NCBI GenBank assembly: GCA_038874655.1
Contig: JAVZBY010000006.1
Coordinates: forward strand, 31,041 to 45,575
DNA length: 14,535 bases
Reading direction: 5' to 3'
From: Candidatus Woesearchaeota archaeon
Lineage (GTDB): Archaea; Nanobdellota; Nanobdellia; Woesearchaeales; GW2011-AR15
Positions 70 to 12,734 of the stretch are shown piece after piece. Made by a program: the position numbers and the translations under genes. Under the pieces are notes generated by a model. It searched no databases and was not told the DNA's origin. It worked only from the letters and a program-made list of their open reading frames with translations. Each line of letters begins with the position of its first letter. Position 1 is the first letter of the stretch.

Positions 70-1176
70 ATGCTTGAAAATAAAGACATAATTGAAAACC
101 ATTTGAAAAAAATTAATGAATTAAGTTATAAATTAAATAGACAAATTACATTAATGGAAGTGTGTGGTGGTCATACAAATGTTATTATGAAATATGGAAT
201 TAGAGACATTCTTCCAAAAAATATTAAATTGATTTCTGGCCCTGGTTGTCCTGTTTGTGTTACTAGCCAAAAAGATATTGATTGTGCAATAGAATTGGCA
301 TTTTCAGGAATTATAATAGCAACATATGGCGATATGTTAAAAGTTCCTGGCTCTTATATGAACTTAGAAGAAGCAAAAGCAAAAACAGGAAATATAATTG
401 AAATTTATTCAACAACAGATGTTTTAGAACTAAAAAAAGAATTTGAAAGAAAAAATAAAGAAATTGTTTTTTTTGGAGTCGGTTTTGAAACAACAGCGCC
501 AATGACTTCATATTTATTAAAAAATAATGTATGTGTTTATTCTGTCCATAAAATAATGCCACCTGCTTTAAAATTTTTAGTTAGCCATGATAAATTAAAA
601 ATAGATGGTTTTATTAGCCCAGGACATGTTAGCACAATAATAGGAAAAACTGCCTATGAGGATTTAAAAATTCCACAAGTTATAACTGGTTTTAGCCCAG
701 AACAAATATTAAGAGGAATTTCTATTTTAATAGAACTAATAATTAAAGAAAAAAATATTGTTTTCAATGCCTATCCTGAGGTTGTTAAAGATACTGGAAA
801 TGAAGTTGCGAAAAAACTTTTAGAAGAGACATTTTATATTGTTGATTCTGAATGGCGTGGTATTGGATTAATAGAAAAGTCTGGATTAGAAGTAAAAAAT
901 TCTAAATTAAATGCAAAAATAAAATACAAAGATATTTTAAAAAATGTAAAAATTAGTGAGGAAAAAGAATGCTTAACTTGTAAAGTGGATTTAATAAATA
1001 GCACAAATATGAATTTAAATGAAGAAAAACCTAGATGCGGTGAAGTTTTATTGGGCTTAATACAACCAAAAGAATGTCCCTTATATAAAGTAAAATGCAC
1101 ACCTTTAACACCTAGAGGAGCTTGTATGGTATCTGAAGAAGGCTCTTGTGCTATTGCTTTTAGGTATGATAATTAA
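70..1176 (+). CDS. hypD: [NiFe]-hydrogenase maturation protein HypD
   Basis: Motifs MEVCGGHT, GPGCPVC, GFETT, PGHVS and C-terminal Cys cluster RCGEVLLG…CPLY…CTP…GACMVSEEGSC; adjacent to hypE. Confidence 0.97.
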   Translation: MLENKDIIENHLKKINELSYKLNRQITLMEVCGGHTNVIMKYGIRDILPKNIKLISGPGCPVCVTSQKDIDCAIELAFSGIIIATYGDMLKVPGSYMNLEEAKAKTGNIIEIYSTTDVLELKKEFERKNKEIVFFGVGFETTAPMTSYLLKNNVCVYSVHKIMPPALKFLVSHDKLKIDGFISPGHVSTIIGKTAYEDLKIPQVITGFSPEQILRGISILIELIIKEKNIVFNAYPEVVKDTGNEVAKKLLEETFYIVDSEWRGIGLIEKSGLEVKNSKLNAKIKYKDILKNVKISEEKECLTCKVDLINSTNMNLNEEKPRCGEVLLGLIQPKECPLYKVKCTPLTPRGACMVSEEGSCAIAFRYDN

Positions 1177-1259: not shown

Positions 1260-2228
1260 ATGTCAGAAATAAATTTAGCACATGGCTCAGGCTCAAAAGA
1301 AATGCATTCATTAATAAAATTGTTTGATTTTTTTAGAGGTAGTTGGAAAAATTTTGATAATGATTCAGCTACCTATGAATTAGATAATGAAAATATTTTA
1401 GTTTTTACCACTGATTCTTTTGTTGTTAATCCTATTTTTTTCCCTAATGCAAATATTGGACATTTGGCTTTTTCCGGAACATGTAATGATTTATTAGTAA
1501 TGGGCTCAAAACCATTAGGTTTAAGTTTAGCTTTTGTTATTGAAGAAGGTTTTTCTATTGAAGATTTAAAAAAAATTATTGATACATTAAAAGAACTTTC
1601 TTTAAAATACAAAATTCCTATTGTTACTGGCGACACCAAAGTAATGGAAAAGGGTAAAATTGACAAAATCATAATAAACACGAGTGGCATTGGACTATGT
1701 AAAAAAAATGAATTATTAACTAAAAAAATTGAAATTGGTGATAAATTAATAATCTCTGGTAGTTTAGGTGAGCATGCTGTTGCTTTATTATCAAAAAGAT
1801 TTAATTATGAAACAGATATTATTTCTGATTCAAAACCTTTAGTAGAGGAATTTAATGAAATTAGAGGTTTAATAAAACAAGCAAAAGATCCAACAAGAGG
1901 TGGAATTGCTTCTGTTTTAAATGAAATTGTTGAAAAAAATAATTTAGGATTTTTAATTGATGAAGAAAAAATTCCTGTAAAAAAAGAAGTGAAAAAAGTT
2001 GTTGAATTATTAGGCATAAATTTATATGAACTAGCATCAGAAGGCAGATTTTTATGCATTGTTAGTAAGGATAATTCTGAATTAGTTTTAAAAAAATTAA
2101 AGAAATTTAATGAAAGTGCTGAAATTATTGGCGAAGTAATTGAAGAAAAAAAGGTTATTCTAAAAACATTTTTAGGAAATAGAATTTTAGGCATGCCCTC
2201 TGGAAGAATTGTGCCAAGGATTTGCTAA
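1260..2228 (+). CDS. hypE: Hydrogenase maturation carbamoyl dehydratase HypE
   Basis: LAHGSG, TTDSFVVNPIFFP, GDTKV, DPTRGG, ASEG motifs and diagnostic C-terminal PRIC. Confidence 0.97.
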   Translation: MSEINLAHGSGSKEMHSLIKLFDFFRGSWKNFDNDSATYELDNENILVFTTDSFVVNPIFFPNANIGHLAFSGTCNDLLVMGSKPLGLSLAFVIEEGFSIEDLKKIIDTLKELSLKYKIPIVTGDTKVMEKGKIDKIIINTSGIGLCKKNELLTKKIEIGDKLIISGSLGEHAVALLSKRFNYETDIISDSKPLVEEFNEIRGLIKQAKDPTRGGIASVLNEIVEKNNLGFLIDEEKIPVKKEVKKVVELLGINLYELASEGRFLCIVSKDNSELVLKKLKKFNESAEIIGEVIEEKKVILKTFLGNRILGMPSGRIVPRIC

Positions 2229-2250: not shown

Positions 2251-2871
2251 TTATTTTAATTTTTCAAACCTCCAACAACCTACTTTAATTTTCTTAACTT
2301 TTTTTTCATGAAATTCCATTGTGTTTTTTAATGGAAAGTCAAATTCAAAATAATTAGTAATAAGAAAATTATTGTCTTTTGAAATTGCTTCAATAAATCT
2401 TTTACTTTCTATTTTATGAAAACTATAAATTATATTTGATATTTGAAATGCTTTTTCTAAAAATATTTTATCTGCATGTTCTTTTTTTGTTCCAAAAGGT
2501 GGATTTTGAATTACTAAATCAACTTTTTGATTAAAGTTTTTAACATCACTCAAAACAATTTCATAATTTTTTAAAGCCATTAATTTTAAGTTATTGTCTA
2601 AATTTTTTAGTTGCCTTTCATCTATATCAACAAAATAAACTTTTTTTGCTTTCATAAACAAACATCCTATTCCTAAAATTCCTGTTCCACAACCTAAATC
2701 AGCTATAACTTTATTATCTAAATCTCCTAATTGATAAGCATTCCATATAACTTCTGCAGCAATCTCAGAATCAGTTGAGTATTGCTCTAATCTAAAAGAT
2801 GGTTTTTCAAATGCTTTTAACCTTGATAATAAAACTGCCAATTGTTTTTTTGAAACAATATTATAATCCAT
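2251..2871 (-). CDS. METTL5-family SAM-dependent (probably RNA N6-adenine) methyltransferase
   Basis: LEQYxT motif, SAM-binding DLGCGTG, catalytic NPPFG, IYSFHK, FHEKK; 206 aa fits archaeal METTL5 homologues. Confidence 0.9.
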   Translation of the reverse strand: MDYNIVSKKQLAVLLSRLKAFEKPSFRLEQYSTDSEIAAEVIWNAYQLGDLDNKVIADLGCGTGILGIGCLFMKAKKVYFVDIDERQLKNLDNNLKLMALKNYEIVLSDVKNFNQKVDLVIQNPPFGTKKEHADKIFLEKAFQISNIIYSFHKIESKRFIEAISKDNNFLITNYFEFDFPLKNTMEFHEKKVKKIKVGCWRFEKLK

Positions 2872-3000: not shown

Positions 3001-3648
3001 ATGTTTTCAGAATTAAGCAATTGGCTTTTAGAGTTAATTAAAACACATGGTATTTTAGCTGTTGTTATTGGTGTTGCACTTGAAACAATAATTGTTCCTA
3101 TTCCTAGTCCTTTAATTTTAATGGCGGCTGGCTATATTTTAATACCCCATACAACTTTATTAGAAATTTTAAGTAAATCCATTTTAATTGCTTTTGTTGC
3201 TGGCTTAGCCCAAACTATTGGTTCTTTTTTATTATATATTCCTGGCTATTATATAGGAAAACCATTTATACAAAAGTATGAAAAATATCATGGAATTAGC
3301 TGGAAAGAAATACAGCATTTTCAAAAAAAATTTGATTCAACAAAAGAAGAGATTGCAATATTCTTTTTAAGAGCATTGCCTATAATTCCCTTATCTATTA
3401 TCTCTGGTTTGTCAGGAATAATGAAAATAGATCTAAAAAAATATACTATTGCTACATTTTTAGGTTTACTTCCAAGAAATTTAATTTTAATCTTTTCTGG
3501 ATTTTTTTTAGGTGAATTTTATATTACCATAGGAAAAAAAATTGACCATGCTGAAACAATAATGACACTTATCATTCTATTTTTAATTATTTTATATATT
3601 GTTATGCATAAAACAGGAACAATTGATAAAATTAGAAAAAAAATTTAA
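3001..3648 (+). CDS. dedA: DedA/VTT (SNARE-associated) family membrane protein; candidate polyprenyl-phosphate flippase
   Basis: LETIIVPIPS (E-x-P-x-PS re-entrant motif), IGSFLLYIPGYYIG, FFLRALPIIP, SGIMKIDLKKYTIATFLGLLP; several hydrophobic segments. Confidence 0.88.
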   Translation: MFSELSNWLLELIKTHGILAVVIGVALETIIVPIPSPLILMAAGYILIPHTTLLEILSKSILIAFVAGLAQTIGSFLLYIPGYYIGKPFIQKYEKYHGISWKEIQHFQKKFDSTKEEIAIFFLRALPIIPLSIISGLSGIMKIDLKKYTIATFLGLLPRNLILIFSGFFLGEFYITIGKKIDHAETIMTLIILFLIILYIVMHKTGTIDKIRKKI

Positions 3649-3726
3649 ATTAGAAAAATATAAAAAATAAAGATACAGATTATTAATTAGATTATTGTTT
3701 TATTAAAATAAAATTTTATTAAGAAA

Positions 3727-4305
3727 ATGATGAAAAAAAGAAAAATCTATTATTTTGGTGTTTTTATTATAATTAGTTTTTTCTTTGATGAGATTATAAG
3801 CAAATTTGTTTTAGGTTTCAAAGATCCTTTTCTAATAAAGTTAATGGAATGGTTTTCTCATGAAATAACTGTCTTTGCTATTCTAATAATAATAAGTTCA
3901 TTATTTTTATATGAAGAGAGAAAAAATAATTATATTCCATTGTTATTCATAAGCTTTTTTACCTCATTAATTTTAAGTTATTTATTAAAATTTCTTATTA
4001 TGCGAGAAAGACCTTTTGGAATGGATTATACTATAATCTCAATATTCAATTTTATTTTAAAAATTCCAAATTATAGTTTTCCTAGTTCACATGCAGCAAT
4101 GGCTTTTTCTGTTTTGCCAATTTTAGATAGGGAATTTAAAAAATTAAAATTATTTTGGATATTTTTTGTAATAATGATTTGCATAAGTAGATTATATTTA
4201 AATCAGCATTATTTAAGTGATGTTGTTGCTGGTGCATTTTTAGGTTATTTATCTGGATATTATACTTTAAGAATCGGTGAGAAACATAATGTTAAACACT
4301 TATGA
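3727..4305 (+). CDS. PAP2-family membrane lipid (pyro)phosphate phosphatase
   Basis: All three PAP2 motifs: KFLIMRERP (Kx6RP), SFPSSH (variant of PSGH), SRLYLNQHYLSD (SRx5Hx3D). Confidence 0.93.
   Translation: MMKKRKIYYFGVFIIISFFFDEIISKFVLGFKDPFLIKLMEWFSHEITVFAILIIISSLFLYEERKNNYIPLLFISFFTSLILSYLLKFLIMRERPFGMDYTIISIFNFILKIPNYSFPSSHAAMAFSVLPILDREFKKLKLFWIFFVIMICISRLYLNQHYLSDVVAGAFLGYLSGYYTLRIGEKHNVKHL
4276..4280 (+). promoter_or_regulatory. Shine-Dalgarno GGTGA for the lipid kinase gene, embedded in the PAP2 3' end
   Basis: GGTGA 8 nt upstream of the in-frame ATG at 4289. Confidence 0.6.
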
Positions 4306-4879
4306 AATAAGAAGAAAAATTTTTCATGTATTTTCAGGAATAACTATAACTTTATTAATAAACAACATAGAAAAAAATATTTTATTAGTTTCATTAATTA
4401 TTTTATTAGTTATAGCCATTATTTTAAGTGTTATTGTAAAATATTTAAAACCAAGCATAATAACATATTTATTAAAATTATTTGATAAACCTAAAGATTT
4501 TGAAAAATTCCCTGGAAAAGGTGCTATCTATTTTTTAATCGGCACACTTATAACTATATTTTTTTTTGAAAAGAATATTGCCTCTGCTTCAATAATGATA
4601 TTAACATTTGGAGATCCCTTCGCACATATAATAGCAAGATATTATGGAAAAACAAAATTAATAATAAATGAAAAAAAAGTTTTAGAAGGCACTATTGCAG
4701 GCATAATTGCAGGAACAATTGCAGCTTCTCTTTTTATTCCTTGGCAAATTGCTTTTTTTGGCTCCTGCTTTGGTATGATAGCTGAGGCAATTGAACTAGA
4801 ATTCTTAAACTGGGATGATAATTTTTATATTCCAGTAGTTGCTGGATTTGTTATTACTATAATAAAAAAAACATTATAA
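4289..4879 (+). CDS. CTP-dependent isoprenoid-alcohol/lipid kinase, SEC59/DGK1/VTE5 (dolichol/phytol/diacylglycerol kinase) family; start revised from GTG 4277 to ATG 4289 (196 aa)
   Basis: EIRRKIFH, GDPFAHIIARYYG…KKVLEGTIAG (variant of KKS/TxEG) and DDNFYIP motifs; polytopic; overlaps PAP2 by 17 nt. Confidence 0.85.
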   Translation: MLNTYEIRRKIFHVFSGITITLLINNIEKNILLVSLIILLVIAIILSVIVKYLKPSIITYLLKLFDKPKDFEKFPGKGAIYFLIGTLITIFFFEKNIASASIMILTFGDPFAHIIARYYGKTKLIINEKKVLEGTIAGIIAGTIAASLFIPWQIAFFGSCFGMIAEAIELEFLNWDDNFYIPVVAGFVITIIKKTL

Positions 4880-4910: not shown

Positions 4911-5210
4911 TTATTTTTTCTGTCTCCCAGTTATAATCAAATTCCCAGGTTTTCCTTTTTCTTCTTCTACTTCAATATACTCTAAATCATTAATCAAAAT
5001 ATCAGAACCTGCTAATAAAAAACTTAAATCTAATCCTTTAAAAACTATTTTATGTATTTTTTTATAATCATCTATAAATTTATCTGGAACAGCATCAGGT
5101 TTTTTATGAGGATCATTTATTGAAAAAAGATGTATAAAAACAGGACCATTCCCATCTTCATCTCTTTTTCCAGCTCTTCCAATTATTGCGCTTTTTGTTG
5201 TATATCTCAT
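4911..5210 (-). CDS. Hypothetical soluble protein, 99 aa
   Basis: ATG-led ORF filling the gap between two genes, protein-like composition, TATA-like TTTAAAAA at 5237-5244 upstream and T-tracts downstream on the minus strand. No family recognised. Confidence 0.75.
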   Translation of the reverse strand: MRYTTKSAIIGRAGKRDEDGNGPVFIHLFSINDPHKKPDAVPDKFIDDYKKIHKIVFKGLDLSFLLAGSDILINDLEYIEVEEEKGKPGNLIITGRQKK

Positions 5211-5282: not shown

Positions 5283-6425
5283 TTATTTTTTATTTTTTTG
5301 TGTTTTCATCACAACTTCAGGCAACCCTGTTCCAACAGGGACTGGTTGATTTATCATTACATTTTCTACTACACTATTCAATGGATCAACTTCTCCAACA
5401 ATAGCTGCATCAACCATATGCTTAATTGGTGTTTCAAATGATGCTCTTGCCAATACAGAACCTTTATCACTAACAACTCCATATCTTGTTATACCTCTAA
5501 CTCTGCCTGAAAAAGTCATTATATCTGCTACCAGCATTATATGTCTTATATCTACATTTAAACCTTGGTCTTCTATTACTTTATAAACCTCTTTTATAAT
5601 TGCTTGTCTTGCTGCCTCAATTCCTAAAATATCTTCTATTTCAAAAACATTATTTGTTGTAGTTCTTGTTTTATCAACATAAGGCAAACTTAAAACATCT
5701 TTTAAATTTGATCCTGAGGTAATTATAACAAATTCATTTTCTCTTTTTACTGGCAACACTTGTAAAATACCTTTAACACCAGAAACATAAATCTCTTTTA
5801 TTCTATCTTTTAATTTATAAAATTCTGCAACATTTTCTATTTGATTTTTTGCTTTTATTGTTACAACATTATCCTTTTCTTTAATAGAATATCCTTTAAT
5901 ATTTTTTTCTAAAATTTTTATTAAAGAATCTATCTTTAAATTTACTCTTTTTACTTTTGCATCATCTAATAAAATTGTAATTATTCCTTCTGTAATTTCC
6001 ATATTTATTTCTTTAATAAAATCCTTAAATTGTGTTTGTTTTATTGACTCTGCAATATCTTTTATATTCTCTCCTTTAGAATATGGCTCTTTCAAATAAA
6101 TTTCCATCATTGGAGTACTAATATTTCTTCTACCATCTAATATCTCAATAATTCTTGGCAAACCTACTGTAACATTGAATTCAGAGACACCTGCAAAGTG
6201 GAAAGTATTTAATGTCATTTGAGTTCCTGGTTCTCCAATTGATTGAGCACTTACTAAACCTACAGATTCACCTGGTTCAATTAAAGAGGTTTTATATTCT
6301 TCATAAACCTTTTCCATTATTTTTTTTAATTGTGTTTTTGTAATTTTTTCAGGTAAGTTTTCTTTAACATCTTCAATTAATTTTAAAGGAAGTTTATCAA
6401 CATATTCATTAAATACTTCATCCAT
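5283..6425 (-). CDS. rpoA2: DNA-directed RNA polymerase subunit A'' (Rpo1C)
   Basis: [30 protein letters not shown] (trigger loop), [43 protein letters not shown]. Confidence 0.98.
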
Positions 6426-6429
6426 ATTA

Positions 6430-6435
6430 TCACCC
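6430..6435 (-). promoter_or_regulatory. Shine-Dalgarno GGGTGA for rpoA''
   Basis: Minus strand TAGGGTGATAAT-ATG, overlapping the rpoA' stop. Confidence 0.7.
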
Positions 6436-9008
6436 TAATTTTTCTCGTTAAGAACTGAATCAATTATTCTTTTAACATTAATCTTTCCTGCTTCAGATTT
6501 TGAAACATCAACTCCATCTTCACCATACTGGAATTGAACAATCTTTTTTGAAGCATTTCTTACTGTGTTATCATATTCTACTTTTAAATCCTGCATAGCA
6601 TTTGCCAATCTTCTATATAAATATCCTGATTTTGGAGTTCTCAATGCAGTATCCATCAATGAATCTCTTCCTGTCATTGCCATAAAAAAGAATTCTGCAG
6701 GATGCATACCTTTTTTGAAACTTGTTTTAATAAATCCTCTTGCTGCTGGCCTTAAATCTCCTGGCTTGAAACATGATAAAGTTCTATTTTTATAACCTCT
6801 TTCAATTCTTTTTCCTCTTAATGCTTGCTGTCCTACAACAGCAGCCATTTGTGCTAAATTGACAATATTTCCTCTAGCTCCTGAAATTGACATTATAAGT
6901 GTGTTTTTTGTTTTATCCAATGATTTTGAGACAACTCTACCTGCATCATTTCTTGCTTTATTTAAAACTTCCAAAATCTTAAGTTCTAATGTTTCTGCTG
7001 TTGTTCTTCCTGGATAAGTATCTAATTCACCTTTTTTATAGATCTCAATTAATTCATCAACTTTATTTTCAGCATTTTTTAAAATATCTTCTATCTCTTT
7101 TTTACTTTCTTCCTTTAAATCTGTATCTGAAAATGCTGCTGTAAATCCATGCATTAACAAAGTCTTAACTCCTAATCTAAATATTTGACCTAATATTTCT
7201 AATGCTTTTTTACTTCCGTATTTCTTATGTAAATTTCTAATCATTAAACCTGATCCACTACCTAAATTAGCTGAATCCATAAAACCTTCAACTAATTTAC
7301 CTTTTTCAATAACAACTTTAGTTCCATCTTTTGCTTTACCAACAAAATCAAAATCTTTTGGAATTAGAACACTGAATATTTCTGCTCCAGAAACAATTTC
7401 TTTTTTTGGTAAATCATCAAAATTTTCAACACCAATGCTTGCTAATAATTGTATTGCCTCTTTTCTTGGCATTTCTAACATCTTTGTCAACATATAATTT
7501 CCAGCAATACTATCATGATTACATGCAATTATACCTAATCCATATCTTGGACTAATTAATTGTGTTTCAACCTCCATCAAAATTTCTGCTTCTGCTCTTG
7601 CCTCTTCTGTTTGAGGTATATGTAAATTCATTTCATCGCCATCAAAATCTGCATTATATGGAGCACAAACAGAGGGATTTAATCTAAATGTTAAGCCAGG
7701 CAATACCTTTACTCTATGACACATCATACTCATTCTATGTAATGATGGCTGTCTATTAAATATTGCAATATCTCCATCTATTAAATGTCTTTCAACAATA
7801 TAACCAATTTGCAATTCTTCTAATAATTGTTCTTTAGTTTCTTCTGTTATTTTTTTCTTTTTACCATCTGGTCTACAAACATAATTAGCTCCTGGATATT
7901 GCTTTGGTCCTCTTTTCACATATTCTTTTAAGTATTCAAAATTCCACTCTGTTATTCTTTCAGGAATAGTTAATTTCATAGCAACTTGTTTTGGCACACC
8001 CACTTCATCAATTGCTATCATAGAATCGGGGCTTATAACAGTTCTACTTGAAAAGTTTGTTCTTTTTCCTGCTAAATTATGCCTAATTCTTCCTTCTTTA
8101 CTTTTTATTCTTTCTGTTAATGTTTTTAATGGTTGTCCACTTCTATGTCTTGCAGGGGGCAACTGTGCAACATTATTATCAAAGAAGGTTGTAATATGAT
8201 ATTGCAACAAATCCCATAAATCTTCAATAATTATTTCTGGAGCACCAGCATTGATATTTTCAAACAATCTTTGATTAATTCTAACCACATCTCCTAATTT
8301 ATGTGTTAAATCATCTTCACTTCTTTCTCCGGATTCTAAAGTAATAGAAGGTCTCATTGTGACTGGTGGAATAGGCAATAATGTTAAAACAGTCCACTCA
8401 GGCCTAAAAACACTTGGATTATATCCAAATAATTTTAAATCATCATCAGGAATCTTTTCTAATCTTGTTCTTACTTCTATTGGAGATAATCTTTTTTCTC
8501 CTTCATAGAAATTAGTTGGTTTTTCAAATCTTATTTTTTCTAATTTTGCATTACAATGTGGACATTTAGTAATTGCCTTACTTTGCATTATAATTTCTTT
8601 CATTAATATTTTTTTAAATTTCTTTTTTCCTTTAGATTCAATTTTTTTAAGATTTTTCTTTATTTCTTCTTCAGAAATTAAAATTCTTCCACATTCTTTA
8701 CATGTACACTTTAATAAGTCATTAATTATTTTTATATACTTAATATGTATTACAGGTCTTGCTAATTCAATATAACCAAAATGTCCTGTACATTCTTTTA
8801 ATTTTGAACCGCATGTTTTACACTTTAATCCTGGGTCTATAACACCTAATCTTGTATCCATTAAGCCACCATCAACAGGATAACCTTCTTTATCATACAA
8901 TTCTGGAGTAACTATTTTAGCAGCTGCCATCTCTTTAATCATTTTTGGAGACAAAACTCCAAATTTAATTGCATCTATTTTTTTATAAACATAAATTTCT
9001 TCATCCAT
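6435..9008 (-). CDS. rpoA1: DNA-directed RNA polymerase subunit A' (Rpo1N)
   Basis: Zn motifs CKTC…CTGH and CKEC…CPHC, NLAGKR, FNRQPSLH, catalytic YNADFDGDEMN, bridge helix near the C-terminus. Confidence 0.99.
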   Translation of the reverse strand: MDEEIYVYKKIDAIKFGVLSPKMIKEMAAAKIVTPELYDKEGYPVDGGLMDTRLGVIDPGLKCKTCGSKLKECTGHFGYIELARPVIHIKYIKIINDLLKCTCKECGRILISEEEIKKNLKKIESKGKKKFKKILMKEIIMQSKAITKCPHCNAKLEKIRFEKPTNFYEGEKRLSPIEVRTRLEKIPDDDLKLFGYNPSVFRPEWTVLTLLPIPPVTMRPSITLESGERSEDDLTHKLGDVVRINQRLFENINAGAPEIIIEDLWDLLQYHITTFFDNNVAQLPPARHRSGQPLKTLTERIKSKEGRIRHNLAGKRTNFSSRTVISPDSMIAIDEVGVPKQVAMKLTIPERITEWNFEYLKEYVKRGPKQYPGANYVCRPDGKKKKITEETKEQLLEELQIGYIVERHLIDGDIAIFNRQPSLHRMSMMCHRVKVLPGLTFRLNPSVCAPYNADFDGDEMNLHIPQTEEARAEAEILMEVETQLISPRYGLGIIACNHDSIAGNYMLTKMLEMPRKEAIQLLASIGVENFDDLPKKEIVSGAEIFSVLIPKDFDFVGKAKDGTKVVIEKGKLVEGFMDSANLGSGSGLMIRNLHKKYGSKKALEILGQIFRLGVKTLLMHGFTAAFSDTDLKEESKKEIEDILKNAENKVDELIEIYKKGELDTYPGRTTAETLELKILEVLNKARNDAGRVVSKSLDKTKNTLIMSISGARGNIVNLAQMAAVVGQQALRGKRIERGYKNRTLSCFKPGDLRPAARGFIKTSFKKGMHPAEFFFMAMTGRDSLMDTALRTPKSGYLYRRLANAMQDLKVEYDNTVRNASKKIVQFQYGEDGVDVSKSEAGKINVKRIIDSVLNEKN

Positions 9009-9012
9009 GATT

Positions 9013-9018
9013 CCACCC
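9013..9018 (-). promoter_or_regulatory. Shine-Dalgarno GGGTGG for rpoA'
   Basis: Minus strand TAA-GGGTGG-AATC-ATG directly after the rpoB' stop. Confidence 0.65.
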
Positions 9019-10821
9019 TTAAAATTTATCTTTCAACATTAATTTAGGATAAATTCCTAGTGATTTTAGTTCATCTAACAACAATTTGAAAGCATAACTC
9101 ATCTCAACATTTGAAACAGGTGCATTTTCACCACAAACAGGACAATAGCTTCTATTTTTAAATTCTTCATGAACAGCTGTTAAACCACATTGCTCACAAA
9201 TAGGAACAATTGTTCTATCTGAATCAAATCTTTCTTTCAATAACATTGATGCACCATGCGCAACAAAGGTATCTTTCTCCATTTCTCCTAATCTTAAACC
9301 ACCTTCTTTTGCTCTACCCTCTGTTGGTTGTCTCGTTAATAATTGCACAGGGCCTCTTGCTCTTGCATGAATCTTATTAGCTACCATATGTTTTAATTTT
9401 TGATAATACATATTTCCAACATAAATTTGTGCTTTCATCATTTCTCCTGTTCTGCCATTATAAAATGTCTCTGTTCCATCTTCTCTAAATCCTAATTTAG
9501 CTAATTCCTTTCTTAAATCTTCATGACTTTCTGCTTCAAAAGAAGTTCCATCAATATATCTACCTGCTAAACTACCAACCTTACCACCTAATAATTCAAT
9601 TAAATGAGCAATAGTCATTCTTGATGGAATACCATGTGGATTAAATATTATATCTGGCACAATTCCAGAAGCTGAAAAAGGCATATCAGCTGGATCAACA
9701 ATTAAACCAACTACACCTTTTTGTCCATGCCTTGAAGTAAATTTATCTCCTATTTCAGGAATTCTTTGGTCTCTTACTCTTGCTTGTACTAATTTATTTC
9801 CTTCTTCGTTTTCTGTTATTAATACAAAATCAACAACCCCTTTTTCTCCGTGTTTCATTGCAACTGAGCTTTCTCTTCTTGAACTTGTAGCTAAATTATA
9901 TTCATCCATACTATTTAAAAACCTGGGAGGACTTGTTTTTCCTATGATTACATCTCCTTCTTCAACAACAGCTTCAGGATAAATAATACCATCTGCTTCC
10001 AAAAACCTATAATCTCTCTCACTTTTATAACCCTTTACATCTTTATCAGGAATACATATTTCATCAGTTAATCCACCTGGATATCTTAATTCCTCACTAA
10101 TAACTGGTCTATAATAAGTTGATCTTGCAAAACCTCTATCAACAGAAGCTCTATTTAAAATAATTGAATCCTCCATATTATAACCATCAAAACTAATAAT
10201 AGCTAAAACAACATTCTGTCCTGAGGGATGTTTTTCATACTCTGAGGATTTATGCATTATTGTTTGAACAATAGGAATTTGTGGTTCATGCAATAGATTA
10301 ACATCCATATCCATTCTAATCAAATAATTAGCAACATAAAACCCTAATGCTTGTTTTTGATTTTTACTACCTGCATTTAATCTTGTGCTTTGATTAAAAT
10401 TACCAAATGGAACTAAACTAGTACATAAACCTACAATAGCTAAAGGTAAAATTTCCATATGTGTATGTTCAGGTGTTAGTTCCTCTTCATAGAAAGCAAT
10501 TAAAGCCTTTTCTTCTTCCATTGCATCTAAATACTCAATAATACCCTGATTAACCAAATCTGAAAAAGTTATCTCATTTTTCTCTAATTGTTCCAAGTGT
10601 CTATCAGTTAATAAAGGTTTTCCATTTTTTACTACAATTAAAGGTCTTATTGCTCTACCTTTTGTAGATTCAATGAAAACAGAATTTGACTCCTCTTCAT
10701 ACAATATATTAATTGAATAATGTATCTTTCCTTTTCTTCTTTCTTCAATAAAAGAATCAACTAATTTTTTCGGATCATCAACAGTTCCAATAAATTTACC
10801 ATTTAAAAATACTTCTGCCAT
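9019..10821 (-). CDS. rpoB1: DNA-directed RNA polymerase subunit B' (Rpo2C, C-terminal half of split RpoB)
   Basis: GYNMEDS, GDKFTSRHGQKG, NPHGIPSRMT, KLKHMV, RQPTEGR…GGLRLGEME, C-terminal CxxC…CxxC. Confidence 0.98.
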   Translation of the reverse strand: MAEVFLNGKFIGTVDDPKKLVDSFIEERRKGKIHYSINILYEEESNSVFIESTKGRAIRPLIVVKNGKPLLTDRHLEQLEKNEITFSDLVNQGIIEYLDAMEEEKALIAFYEEELTPEHTHMEILPLAIVGLCTSLVPFGNFNQSTRLNAGSKNQKQALGFYVANYLIRMDMDVNLLHEPQIPIVQTIMHKSSEYEKHPSGQNVVLAIISFDGYNMEDSIILNRASVDRGFARSTYYRPVISEELRYPGGLTDEICIPDKDVKGYKSERDYRFLEADGIIYPEAVVEEGDVIIGKTSPPRFLNSMDEYNLATSSRRESSVAMKHGEKGVVDFVLITENEEGNKLVQARVRDQRIPEIGDKFTSRHGQKGVVGLIVDPADMPFSASGIVPDIIFNPHGIPSRMTIAHLIELLGGKVGSLAGRYIDGTSFEAESHEDLRKELAKLGFREDGTETFYNGRTGEMMKAQIYVGNMYYQKLKHMVANKIHARARGPVQLLTRQPTEGRAKEGGLRLGEMEKDTFVAHGASMLLKERFDSDRTIVPICEQCGLTAVHEEFKNRSYCPVCGENAPVSNVEMSYAFKLLLDELKSLGIYPKLMLKDKF

Positions 10822-10827
10822 CTTAAT

Positions 10828-10833
10828 TCACCT
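10828..10833 (-). promoter_or_regulatory. Shine-Dalgarno AGGTGA for rpoB'
   Basis: Minus strand TAGGTGAATTAAG-ATG, overlapping the rpoB'' stop. Confidence 0.7.
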
Positions 10834-12313
10834 ATTTAATAATCTTAACACCTGATGTTTTTAAAAATTTTATAATTGGTTCTTCATTTTCTTCCTGTGA
10901 AATTGCAGTTAATAGTGCTAAATTTTTTCTTAATCCTATATTTGTACCTTCTGGTGTTTCTATTGGACATAATCTTCCTAAATGTGTGCTATGTAATGCT
11001 CTTGCTTCAAAATTTTCTTGACTTGCTGACAAAGGACTAACAACTCTTTGTAAATGACTTAATGTTTCTAAATGATTTAATCTTTGCATTCTTTGAGCAA
11101 TTCCTTTTCTGCCTCCTACCCAATTTCCAGTGGCCATAGAACTATAAATTCTTTGAGTTAATAATTTATCTCTTATTATAACTTTTAAAGAAGGGAATTT
11201 ACCCCTTTTTACAATTCTTTGGAAATTATATAACATATCTCCAATTAATATTTTTAAATTTACTCTAAACAAATCAGCCAATAATACCCCTGATAATTTT
11301 AATCTTTTATTAGCATAATGATCTTTATCATCGATATTTAATTTTCCATTAGAAACTGCAATATATCTTTTCAATAATTTACATAAATTATATGCTTTAT
11401 AGATTCTATCTTCTCTTTGTGTTCCTAAATGAGGCAATAAATACTTATCTAAAATTTCTTTTGTTCTCTCTATTCTTATTTCTTTTGCTTGTGTAATTCC
11501 CATTTTTTTAGCAATATAATCTAAAGCTTCTTCCTCATTTTTGATATTTACAAATTCTAATAAATTAATATAAACTTCCTCTTTATATTCTGTATCTATA
11601 AAATTCATTATTTCTTCATCTTTTAACAAACCTAATGCCTTTAAAACAATTACAAATGGCACTCTTTTAACTCTAGTGAAAGTTAAATAAAAGATATCAT
11701 CTTTCATCTTTTCAATTGTGTGAGGAATTTTATATGCTCCTTGTTCACTAAATAATTTTCCAACAAATCTACTTGGCCCAATTGAAGTTTCTTCTACTAA
11801 CATTTTATTTGGAGCTAAATCTTCAACATTAATCAAAACCTTTTCTGTGCCATTAATTATAAAATAACCACCTGGGTCATCAGGATCTTCACCTTTTTCT
11901 ATTAATTCTTTTGGACTTAATCCTTTTAAATGACAAGAATTAGATTTAAGCATAATTGGAAAATTTCCTACTTGTGCTGTAAATGATTCTCTTTGAATAC
12001 CATCTACAAAAGCTCCAATTTCTATAAACAAAGGTGCTGAATAGGATATTTTTCTTAATCTGGCTTCTATTGGATAAATAGGCCTTTTTGAACCATCTGC
12101 TTCAGTAATAATTGGTTTTCCTATTGAGACTTTACCTAATTTTATCTTATATTCATCAATAGTATGTGGAATTATTGTAGGCAAAATTGTTGCATTTTCA
12201 TCTACAATGCTTTGTAATTCTCTTTCAATAAAATTATTAAATGATTCAATATCTGAGTTAATTAAAGAATTTTCAATGAAATATTTTTTTATTATAATAT
12301 CTCTTTTATTCAT
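10832..12313 (-). CDS. rpoB2: DNA-directed RNA polymerase subunit B'' (Rpo2N, N-terminal half of split RpoB)
   Basis: PIEARLRKISYSAP, DPGGYFIINGTEKV, DDKDHYANKRL, ATGNW, CPIETPEG; ATGA overlap with rpoH stop. Confidence 0.98.
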   Translation of the reverse strand: MNKRDIIIKKYFIENSLINSDIESFNNFIERELQSIVDENATILPTIIPHTIDEYKIKLGKVSIGKPIITEADGSKRPIYPIEARLRKISYSAPLFIEIGAFVDGIQRESFTAQVGNFPIMLKSNSCHLKGLSPKELIEKGEDPDDPGGYFIINGTEKVLINVEDLAPNKMLVEETSIGPSRFVGKLFSEQGAYKIPHTIEKMKDDIFYLTFTRVKRVPFVIVLKALGLLKDEEIMNFIDTEYKEEVYINLLEFVNIKNEEEALDYIAKKMGITQAKEIRIERTKEILDKYLLPHLGTQREDRIYKAYNLCKLLKRYIAVSNGKLNIDDKDHYANKRLKLSGVLLADLFRVNLKILIGDMLYNFQRIVKRGKFPSLKVIIRDKLLTQRIYSSMATGNWVGGRKGIAQRMQRLNHLETLSHLQRVVSPLSASQENFEARALHSTHLGRLCPIETPEGTNIGLRKNLALLTAISQEENEEPIIKFLKTSGVKIIK

Positions 12314-12549
12314 TTTACCACCCTTCTATAAAAAACTGTTTTTTTTGCAGTGGGACTTTGTCTTTCTATCATAATAATATCATCTACTTCCACATCTAAA
12401 CGAGAAATCGCAGGATCTTTTATAGAAATCCTAGGCAATTCCTTTGCAGTTATTTTGTATTTTTCAAGAAGTTCATTTTTTTCTTTTTCACTCAACTTTT
12501 TATGTTTTGGAACTAGAAAATGCTGACTTACATCAAACTCTTTTTCCAT
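12310..12549 (-). CDS. rpoH: DNA-directed RNA polymerase subunit H (Rpo5), 79 aa; start revised from 12618 to ATG 12549
   Basis: HFLVPKH, LPRISIKDP, IERQSPTA, YRRV; the longer ORF-track start lies inside tRNA-Lys and an SD precedes 12549. Confidence 0.96.
   Translation of the reverse strand: MEKEFDVSQHFLVPKHKKLSEKEKNELLEKYKITAKELPRISIKDPAISRLDVEVDDIIMIERQSPTAKKTVFYRRVVK
12318..12323 (-). promoter_or_regulatory. Shine-Dalgarno GGGTGG for rpoB'' inside the last rpoH codons
   Basis: Minus strand AGAAGGGTGGTAAA-ATG. Confidence 0.6.
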
Positions 12550-12557
12550 AATAAAAA

Positions 12558-12563
12558 TCACCC
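12558..12563 (-). promoter_or_regulatory. Shine-Dalgarno GGGTGA for rpoH
   Basis: Minus strand AAGGGTGATTTTTATT-ATG. Confidence 0.7.
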
Positions 12564-12582
12564 TTAATGCATTATAAAAATG

Positions 12583-12656
12583 TGGGCTGGACGCGATTCG
12601 AACGCGCGACCACCTCATTAAAAGTGAGGTGCTCTACCAAGCTGAGCTACCAGCCC
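12583..12656 (-). tRNA. tRNA-Lys(UUU), no intron, CCA not encoded
   Basis: GGGCTGG/CCAGCCC acceptor, GCTC/GAGC D stem, CCTCA-CTTTTAA-TGAGG anticodon arm, GCGCG-TTCGAAT-CGCGT T arm, discriminator A. Confidence 0.97.
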
Positions 12657-12661
12657 ATGTA

Positions 12662-12734
12662 CGCCCAAGCCGAGATTCGAACTCGGGTCAGACCCGTGAC
12701 AGGGGTCTATGATAGGCCACTACACCACTTGGGC
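12662..12734 (-). tRNA. tRNA-Asp(GUC), no intron, CCA not encoded
   Basis: GCCCAAG/CTTGGGC acceptor, GACCC-CTGTCAC-GGGTC anticodon arm, CCGAG-TTCGAAT-CTCGG T arm, discriminator G. Confidence 0.97.

Follow-up and report, generated by a model that had tools for sequence, protein, structure and literature searches.

A linked DedA, PAP2 and kinase-like gene block in a Woesearchaeota-type archaeon: a candidate module for polyprenyl-phosphate supply and recycling

Our analysis concerns a block of three membrane-protein genes in a 14,535-nucleotide (nt) stretch of DNA, here called the window, which corresponds to positions 31041-45575 of contig C6 in the genome of a DPANN archaeon of the Woesearchaeota type (1.26 Mb, 17 contigs, 24.5% G+C, rated 97% complete). 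The first gene (3001-3648, plus strand, 215 amino acids (aa)) encodes a membrane protein of the DedA type with a VTT domain (Pfam VTT_dom), a candidate lipid translocator. It is separated by an AT-rich spacer of 78 nt (3649-3726) from a gene on the same strand (3727-4305, 192 aa) whose product is assigned by Pfam and by its motifs to the PAP2 family of lipid phosphate/pyrophosphate phosphatases. The third gene (4289-4879, plus strand, 196 aa) encodes a dolichol/polyprenol-kinase-like protein of the CTP_transf_1 superfamily, identified through motifs and homologue matches and referred to below as the kinase. Its start codon (ATG 4289) lies upstream of the PAP2 stop codon (TGA 4303-4305), giving an overlap of 17 nt (4289-4305), and a Shine-Dalgarno-like GGTGA (4276-4280) is embedded in the end of the PAP2 coding region, 8 nt before the ATG. 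The listing of open reading frames (ORFs) had picked an in-frame GTG at 4277 as the kinase start (200 aa); in the alignment the kinase homologues begin near ATG 4289, which does not favour the longer form. An earlier note on this DNA, made from the sequence alone, had described three co-oriented membrane genes and a 17-nt overlap with an embedded Shine-Dalgarno sequence. Both descriptions stand: the ORF listing, the Pfam matches of DedA and PAP2 and the CTP motif of the kinase confirm the former, and the latter can be read directly in the sequence. No minus-strand ORF of at least 50 aa was found within 3001-4879. Because the flanking genes run the opposite way, namely a divergent methyltransferase gene (2251-2871, minus strand) and a convergent 99-aa ORF (4911-5210, minus strand) without a match to any Pfam or NCBIfam family, the three genes form a self-contained co-oriented block.

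The genes of this block are neighbours far beyond the window. Our comparison started from 76 kinase loci, of which the 41 related genomes contributed 30, while the other 46 came from named genome contigs (11-row alignment search). Once 15 exact duplicates had been merged and a fragment of 80 aa set aside, 60 distinct loci remained. DedA and PAP2 were scored by family profiles when encoded on the same strand no more than 1.5 kb upstream of the kinase. The complete DedA-PAP2-kinase arrangement was present at nine loci, DedA-kinase at ten and PAP2-kinase at 14 (three of them, from bacteria of the candidate phyla radiation (CPR), with PAP2 at a distance of 540-1145 nt), while PAP2 was fused to the kinase at two loci, the kinase stood alone at 22 and a contig edge intervened at three. 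Same-strand upstream DedA and/or PAP2 was therefore found at 35 of the 57 loci with enough upstream sequence. The 41 related genomes give a similar picture from the side of the partner genes, since 14 of the 16 genomes with a strong match to the PAP2 orthologue have it next to the kinase or fused with it (the exceptions are G028 and G033, the latter without a kinase match), and 17 of the 20 genomes with the DedA orthologue (at least 258 bits) encode it immediately before the kinase or PAP2-kinase (exceptions G009, G013 and G015). In relatives with all three genes, a few to about 65 nt separate DedA from PAP2 in the tblastn matches, as measured between match ends and not gene ends; where PAP2 is absent, the gap between DedA and the kinase is 0-38 nt, with one locus at 474 nt. 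The linkage of DedA, PAP2 and kinase is thus more than chance, and an explanation by chance neighbours was rejected on the strength of the conserved synteny together with the fusions described below. PAP2-kinase is the robust and widespread pair, DedA-kinase is a pair at the level of a lineage, and the trio is their intersection.

Gene fusions provide the second line of evidence for the PAP2-kinase pair. A profile-free search among 1.84 billion representatives yielded 2960 kinase relatives at E<=0.001, of which the best 150 were examined. Among these best 150 of 2960, 34 proteins are at least 300 aa long and carry the kinase domain at the C-terminus; an N-terminal PAP2 domain was recognized in 29 of the 34 by phmmer with the PAP2 protein of the window and in one more by Pfam. 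Likewise, PAP2 was detected in nine of ten long or intermediate kinase relatives scanned with Pfam. About one fifth of the best 150 of 2960 representatives are accordingly PAP2-kinase fusions, and these occur in both DPANN archaea and CPR bacteria. Named examples come from Nanoarchaeota, Gracilibacteria and Peregrinibacteria and carry no annotation beyond phosphatase PAP2 family protein. The domain order of the fusions, PAP2 followed by kinase, equals the gene order in the window, where a single frameshift would turn the 17-nt overlap into a fusion. The proposal that the phosphatase and the kinase act in one pathway, made from the window alone, thereby receives strong support. Moreover, because PAP2-kinase also occurs in bacteria, a substrate shared by archaea and bacteria, hence a polyprenol, is favoured.

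Two observations on the taxonomy of the kinase homologues were made along the way. While the named relatives of the 196-aa protein are metagenome bins of Woesearchaeota and Nanoarchaeota, homologues from Gracilibacteria/Patescibacteria (loci L079, L082, L083 and L084) nest in the archaeal clade as a bacterial group with support of 100/98, and have PAP2 either fused or 540-1145 nt upstream. Such nesting suggests transfer between DPANN archaea and CPR bacteria, or mis-binning. In addition, kinases on contigs titled 'uncultured Methanosarcinales archaeon' (L041, L042, L047, L049 and others) group with those of Woesearchaeota/Nanoarchaeota, and these titles appear to be automatic labelling errors.

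The PAP2 protein is a clear member of its superfamily, with a match to PF01569 at E 1.4e-20 and 73.8 bits (cut-off 27.2). PAP2 phosphatases are defined by the three motifs KxxxxxxRP, PSGH and SRxxxxxHxxxD. In the window protein these correspond to K88-x6-R95-P96 (C1), P119-S-S-H122 (C2) and S154-R-x5-H161-x3-D165 (C3), and they are invariant or nearly so in 28 aligned sequences, comprising the window PAP2 and 27 PAP2 domains from fused relatives. By sequence, the nearest relatives in the PDB are Bacillus subtilis PgpB/YodM (1e-07) and Aquifex LpxE (4.4e-07). None of the following NCBIfam equivalogs for named phosphatases was reached: SepP (36.9 bits, cut-off 250), PRK11837 (35.2, cut-off 229), LpxE (27.8, cut-off 177) and PgpB (15.9, cut-off 261). 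A search of the six-frame translation with the family profile found this single PAP2 in the genome. The idea that it is the sole polyprenyl-diphosphate phosphatase was nevertheless rejected, as the genome also encodes BacA/UppP. A complex prediction for PAP2 and kinase, made without controls, scored 0.00 against a mark of 0.32 and counts neither way.

For the 196-aa protein, four lines of evidence point to membership in the CTP_transf_1 superfamily and, within it, to the kinase branch. In PMC13586052 the CTP-binding motif of dolichol kinases is quoted as DxxAxxxGxxxGx8KKTxEG, and residues 109-134 of the window protein match it at seven of nine fixed positions with exact spacing, retaining D, A, the second G, K, K, E and G. 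The two departures are A in place of the first G (position 116, where at least 90% of 27 aligned family sequences have G) and V in place of T. In the same 27 sequences D109, E133, G134, D177 and N178 are invariant. When 203 family members were scanned, 60 of the 68 matched by a relaxed form of the CTP motif showed the 8-residue spacer, and a C-terminal [DN]DN...P motif was found in 195 of the 203. The CDP-diacylglycerol (CDP-DAG) synthetase CdsA of Escherichia coli differs in both respects, since its related CTP motif has an 11-residue spacer and its C-terminus carries another motif. This CdsA-type C-terminal metal-binding motif is absent from the kinase family, which speaks against placing the family in the CdsA/CarS group; with the family profile, E. 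coli CdsA reaches 16.5 bits and the CarS protein of the window genome -0.8. Pfam family PF01148 is reached at E<=0.01 by eight of 27 homologues (best 2.3e-06). The automatic names of homologue clusters are dolichol kinase (eight) and phytol kinase (three) at JGI and cytidylyltransferase for two homologues at NCBI, while a neighbour cluster in the Atlas is named diacylglycerol/polyprenol kinase family. An AlphaFold2 (AF2) model of the protein has a pLDDT of 94.8, and its best fold match in the PDB (Foldseek) is CDP-DAG synthetase CdsA (4q2g), a weak one with E 0.11 and TM 0.39. Taken from sequence, the protein would be a minimal, catalytic-domain-only CTP-dependent kinase with polyprenol or dolichol as its presumed substrate.

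The remainder of the genome offers a context for such enzymes. A mevalonate-pathway cluster (locus L097, C3:192000-201000), all on one strand, comprises genes for a GHMP kinase, an HMG-CoA-synthase-like protein, a thiolase, a DUF35-type OB protein, HMG-CoA reductase, an endonuclease/exonuclease/phosphatase-family protein, a second GHMP kinase and a polyprenyl synthase. Two cis-prenyltransferases are encoded, one of them 2.4 kb from the oligosaccharyltransferase AglB/STT3, downstream of which lie a sugar epimerase/dehydratase and then a GT2 gene. CarS is also present, its match reading through one TAA at its edge, so that the mevalonate pathway, cis-prenyltransferase, AglB and CarS, all of which had been listed for checking, are found in this genome. 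Given the mevalonate cluster, the polyprenyl synthase and the two cis-prenyltransferases, polyprenyl diphosphate would be made in the cell, and the scavenging of polyprenols that the earlier note had considered is not needed. Supply and recycling are favoured over scavenging because mevalonate cluster, cis-prenyltransferases, BacA and AglB occur together in the genome. We therefore consider it moderately probable that the cluster supplies and recycles polyprenyl/dolichyl phosphate in this DPANN archaeon.

In such a module, an outward-facing PAP2 would strip phosphate from the carrier that is released on the outside after glycan transfer, converting dolichyl diphosphate (Dol-PP) to dolichyl phosphate (Dol-P) and possibly further to dolichol. 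A cytoplasm-facing kinase would regenerate Dol-P on the inside with CTP for AglB-dependent glycosylation, and DedA would most likely move the carrier, as Dol-P or as free alcohol, between the leaflets. The predicted topologies are consistent with this division of labour. In an analysis of hydrophobic segments and charged loops, the N-terminus, the short loops and the C-terminal tail of PAP2 are basic, and all three motifs lie in the alternate loops. This matches the usual arrangement of PAP2 proteins, whose active site is outside and whose termini are inside; the kinase domain of the fusions comes after the inside-facing tail of PAP2. Helix parity in the AF2 model places the conserved polar residues of the kinase, R9/H13, D109, K129-K130-E133 and D176-N178, all on the N-terminal side of the membrane, which would be the cytoplasm, where CTP is. 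The active sites of PAP2 and kinase are hence predicted to face opposite sides of the membrane. A fully developed dephosphorylate-flip-rephosphorylate shuttle, with PAP2 acting outside and the kinase inside, in many cases as parts of a single polypeptide, and with a DedA protein that has eukaryote-like (TMEM41B/VMP1/YdjZ-type) substrate-site motifs as translocator of Dol-P or dolichol, is one that we put forward tentatively.

Several results weigh against a supply and recycling module. The kinase has no Pfam match at E<=0.01 (PF01148 is found at E 0.34 with 11.2 bits, cut-off 24), no fold match in the PDB at E<=0.001 by Foldseek, and its family has no solved structure at E<=10 in a profile search of the PDB by sequence; the choice between a kinase and another CTP-using activity leans on motifs and automatic names rather than on a tree. 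In the genome no GPT-type Glycos_transf_4 was found, so that a Dol-PP carrier, which PAP2 would naturally act on, is not evident. BacA alone could make polyprenyl phosphate from the cis-prenyltransferase product, which would leave the source of free alcohol for the kinase unexplained. With respect to linkage, neither neighbour is present at 22 of the 60 kinase loci, 17 of which belong to one clade and often lie beside a divergent RtcB gene; the neighbours in this clade (RtcB, an alpha/beta hydrolase, a CBS protein and others) gave no functional lead. All five genomes of genus g8 (94-98% complete) keep DedA-kinase, and no PAP2 over the Pfam cut-off was found in any of them, which makes PAP2 dispensable in that genus. 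Furthermore, the linkage of DedA to the kinase is nearly limited to the family of the window genome (f1), apart from three loci elsewhere (L024, L062 and L075). While the conserved synteny on which the earlier note had staked its proposal is present (35 of 57 loci; 14 of 16 and 17 of 20 genomes), the trio is for these reasons not a general unit: its DedA orthologue hardly occurs outside one family, its PAP2 is missing in g8, and 22 of 60 kinases lack both neighbours.

Further points of this kind come from the placement of DedA among its subfamilies. Membership in the family as such is clear, as VTT_dom (PF09335) matches residues 34-167 at E 2.6e-17 and 63.9 bits (cut-off 33.9). Flippases of undecaprenyl phosphate (UndP) in COG0586 share four hallmark residues, which in YghB are E39 and D51 in re-entrant helix 1 and R130 and R136 in helix 2, whereas COG0398 proteins are without these residues, resemble eukaryotic scramblases and are unlikely to be UndP flippases (Todor et al., bioRxiv 10.1101/2023.01.04.522824). 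The DedA protein of the window keeps two of the four: E28 corresponds to E39 and R124 to R130, both invariant in 98 of 98 archaeal homologues and in 18 of 18 sequences of a second set, while the D51 and R136 columns hold proline and the second motif reads R-x-x-P-x-x-P as in YdjZ. By its residues it is thus no clear member of the UndP-flippase subfamily. A profile of the 98 archaeal homologues was compared with eight E. coli paralogues and scored best on the COG0398-type YdjZ (46.8 bits), as against 11.8-25.4 bits for five COG0586 paralogues; apart from YdjZ, the individual values were 25.4 for DedA, 20.8 for YdjX, 19.5 for YohD, 16.5 for YqjA, 12.5 for YabI, 11.8 for YghB and 1.5 for YqaA. 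On the other hand, the NCBIfam model of Bacillus UptA gave 70.9 bits for the window protein, compared with 56.2 for E. coli DedA, 42.2 for YohD, 36.4 for YdjZ, 31.5 for YghB and 27.5 for YdjX, all of these below the cut-off of 250. With a profile that is best on YdjZ and two of four hallmarks set against the highest UptA score, the subfamily placement is ambiguous, and it is gene context, not subfamily membership, that suggests flipping of polyprenyl phosphate by DedA. A sequence search of the PDB with DedA returned no match at E<=1. Elsewhere in the genome we noted a second, weak DedA-like frame (C1:27558-28268) with 28.4 bits to the archaeal profile.

These properties lead to the alternative in which PAP2 and kinase are a real polyprenyl-phosphate pair and DedA is a separate protein, a general phospholipid scramblase or other transporter, which came to lie upstream in one lineage. 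The orthologue is indeed found in 19 of the 20 genomes of family f1 (window genome included) and in one of the 21 other relatives (G039), the linkage of PAP2 to the kinase reaches far wider than that of DedA, and the proline in place of D51 together with the R-x-x-P-x-x-P motif makes an UndP flippase unlikely by the criteria of Todor et al. No longer or fused form of DedA was found in our search, which is weak evidence in the same direction. Against a separate DedA stands the tightness of the association: in 17 of 20 genomes nothing lies between the orthologue and the kinase or PAP2-kinase, the gaps to the kinase at loci without PAP2 are 0-38 nt except for the one of 474 nt, the two genes remain adjacent in genus g8 despite the loss of PAP2, and the arrangement recurs at the three loci outside the f1 clade. 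In addition, the UptA model scores the protein above the five E. coli paralogues (27.5-56.2 bits), and DUF368/PopT, which could have served as an alternative translocator, was not found in the genome. On this evidence we regard a separate DedA as unlikely. Of the complete carrier loop with DedA flipping that the earlier note had drawn, the linkage and the fusions uphold the phosphatase-kinase part, while the loss of two of the four hallmarks and the likeness to YdjZ weaken the case for DedA as a flippase, and the presence of BacA tells against a loop that needs these three genes alone; its interpretation as a whole is partly supported.

A second alternative, which we judge to be distinctly improbable, sees the block as a route of membrane-lipid salvage, with the third protein as a Dgk1-like archaeol kinase, PAP2 as a phosphatase of archaetidic acid or phospholipids and DedA as a scramblase, so that archaeol from a host would be fed to CarS. 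Yeast Dgk1 is itself a CTP-dependent member of the CTP_transf_1 superfamily. The starting point of this proposal is the lipid metabolism of the archaeon, which seems to be without the core ether-lipid enzymes and yet keeps CarS: neither GGGPS over the cut-off nor a UbiA-type DGGGPS was found in the genome, which leaves the source of the CarS substrate unexplained. CarS and a weak UbiA match lie at C2:51168-51698 and C7:17715-18227; the weak match was rejected as DGGGPS, as it is an exosortase/archaeosortase-like protein. The resemblance of DedA to the eukaryote-like COG0398 type and the Atlas cluster name diacylglycerol/polyprenol kinase family would also suit salvage. The distribution of the kinase speaks for another role. 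Among the 41 relatives, which are kin and whose counts are therefore not independent, the kinase was found in 33, a cis-prenyltransferase in 37, STT3 in 39 and CarS in 24. The kinase accompanies the cis-prenyltransferase in 32 of 37 relatives and occurs in one of the four without it; in contrast, it is present in 12 of the 17 relatives that gave no CarS match and lacking from three of the 24 with CarS. The kinase tracks the cis-prenyltransferase better, and this phyletic pattern fits a polyprenol role better than a role in feeding CarS. Moreover, fusions and pairs exist in CPR bacteria, which are not expected to use archaeol, and a fused phosphatase and kinase acting on one diether lipid would run a futile cycle unless separated by the membrane. 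Finally, that the third protein is a cytidylyltransferase, a second CdsA/CarS-like enzyme making a CDP-activated lipid, is very improbable: no Pfam family other than PF01148, a cytidylyltransferase family, is reached, 4q2g gives the best fold match and two homologues are so named by NCBI, but the CdsA C-terminal motif is replaced by [DN]DN...P, the CTP-motif spacer is that of dolichol kinase, the profile scores on CdsA and CarS are low and the genome already has CarS.

Read as a module for polyprenyl-phosphate supply and recycling, the block has its closest parallel in eukaryotic DOLPP1/Cwh8, a PAP2 protein, together with DOLK/Sec59, which represent the same two enzyme families. DOLPP1 is a dolichyl-diphosphate phosphatase that faces the outside or lumen and yields Dol-P. 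By analogy, both systems may combine a presumed outside or luminal phosphatase with a cytoplasmic CTP-dependent kinase, each yielding Dol-P. Unlike DOLPP1 and DOLK, the genes of the window overlap and are fused in relatives, the kinase would consist of the catalytic C-terminal domain only (196 aa) and DedA is attached. The CTP site of dolichol kinase is stated to be cytoplasmic (PMC11542857, PMC13586052), and most dolichol kinases are described as having a long N-terminal domain (PMC11542857). The recycling of UndP in bacteria, by BacA/UppP or PAP2 together with DedA proteins (UptA/YghB) or DUF368 (PopT), likewise ties PAP2 to DedA, and BacA is also common to the archaeal genome. It differs from the system described here in the archaeal host, in a DedA with only E28 and R124 of the hallmarks and a YdjZ-like second motif, and in a CTP_transf_1-type kinase as third partner. 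The undecaprenol kinase of Gram-positive bacteria belongs to another family than CTP_transf_1. Fusions of PAP2 with DedA and with DUF368 are on record and were taken to support a translocation of UndP (PMC9876793; Todor et al., bioRxiv 10.1101/2023.01.04.522824), whereas no DedA fusion was found in our search.

The enzyme families of the block are known, and their linkage as a cluster or fusion was not found described in the literature searched. Specifically, our search of CC-licensed papers in PMC and of bioRxiv preprints, not counting the supplements of PMC5898192, PMC9876793, PMC5088576 and PMC11542857, brought up no account of a PAP2-dolichol-kinase fusion or of a DedA-PAP2-kinase trio. 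A predicted archaeal dolichol kinase, arCOG01881/COG0170 (e.g., HVO_0053), is in print (PMC5898192); in the main text of that paper the words PAP2 and DedA are both absent, and no such context is given there for arCOG01881. In a review of archaeal N-glycosylation (PMC11407970), a word search for kinase, phosphatase, flippase and recycl- gave no match.

Beyond the block, the window contains a split RNA polymerase operon on the minus strand (5283-12618). It comprises an Rpb5-like RpoH gene (12310-12618), two pieces of Rpb2 (10832-12313 and 9019-10821) and two pieces of Rpb1 (6435-9008 and 5283-6425). Two tRNA genes were identified by Rfam on the same strand (12583-12656 and 12662-12734), the first of which overlaps the 5' end of the RpoH ORF. 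Because of this overlap with the called ORF start, the true start of RpoH is probably located further downstream. At the other end of the window, a HypD hydrogenase-maturation gene (70-1176, plus strand) is followed by an AIR-synthase-related, HypE-like gene (1260-2228, plus strand).

The making and recycling of dolichyl phosphate in archaea are poorly worked out, and the cluster provides three small, expressible candidates which bear on steps of the carrier-lipid cycle in archaea and possibly in eukaryotes. The 196-aa kinase would represent a minimal catalytic core of the dolichol-kinase type and could be useful for structural work. Its link to DedA raises the testable question of whether polyprenyl phosphate is moved by DedA proteins outside COG0586. 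If the shuttle is true, this type of DedA would be a concrete candidate for the not-yet-identified Dol-P translocator of archaea and eukaryotes. Overall, the spread of the PAP2-kinase fusion over DPANN archaea as well as CPR bacteria suggests that ultra-small cells have a solution in common.

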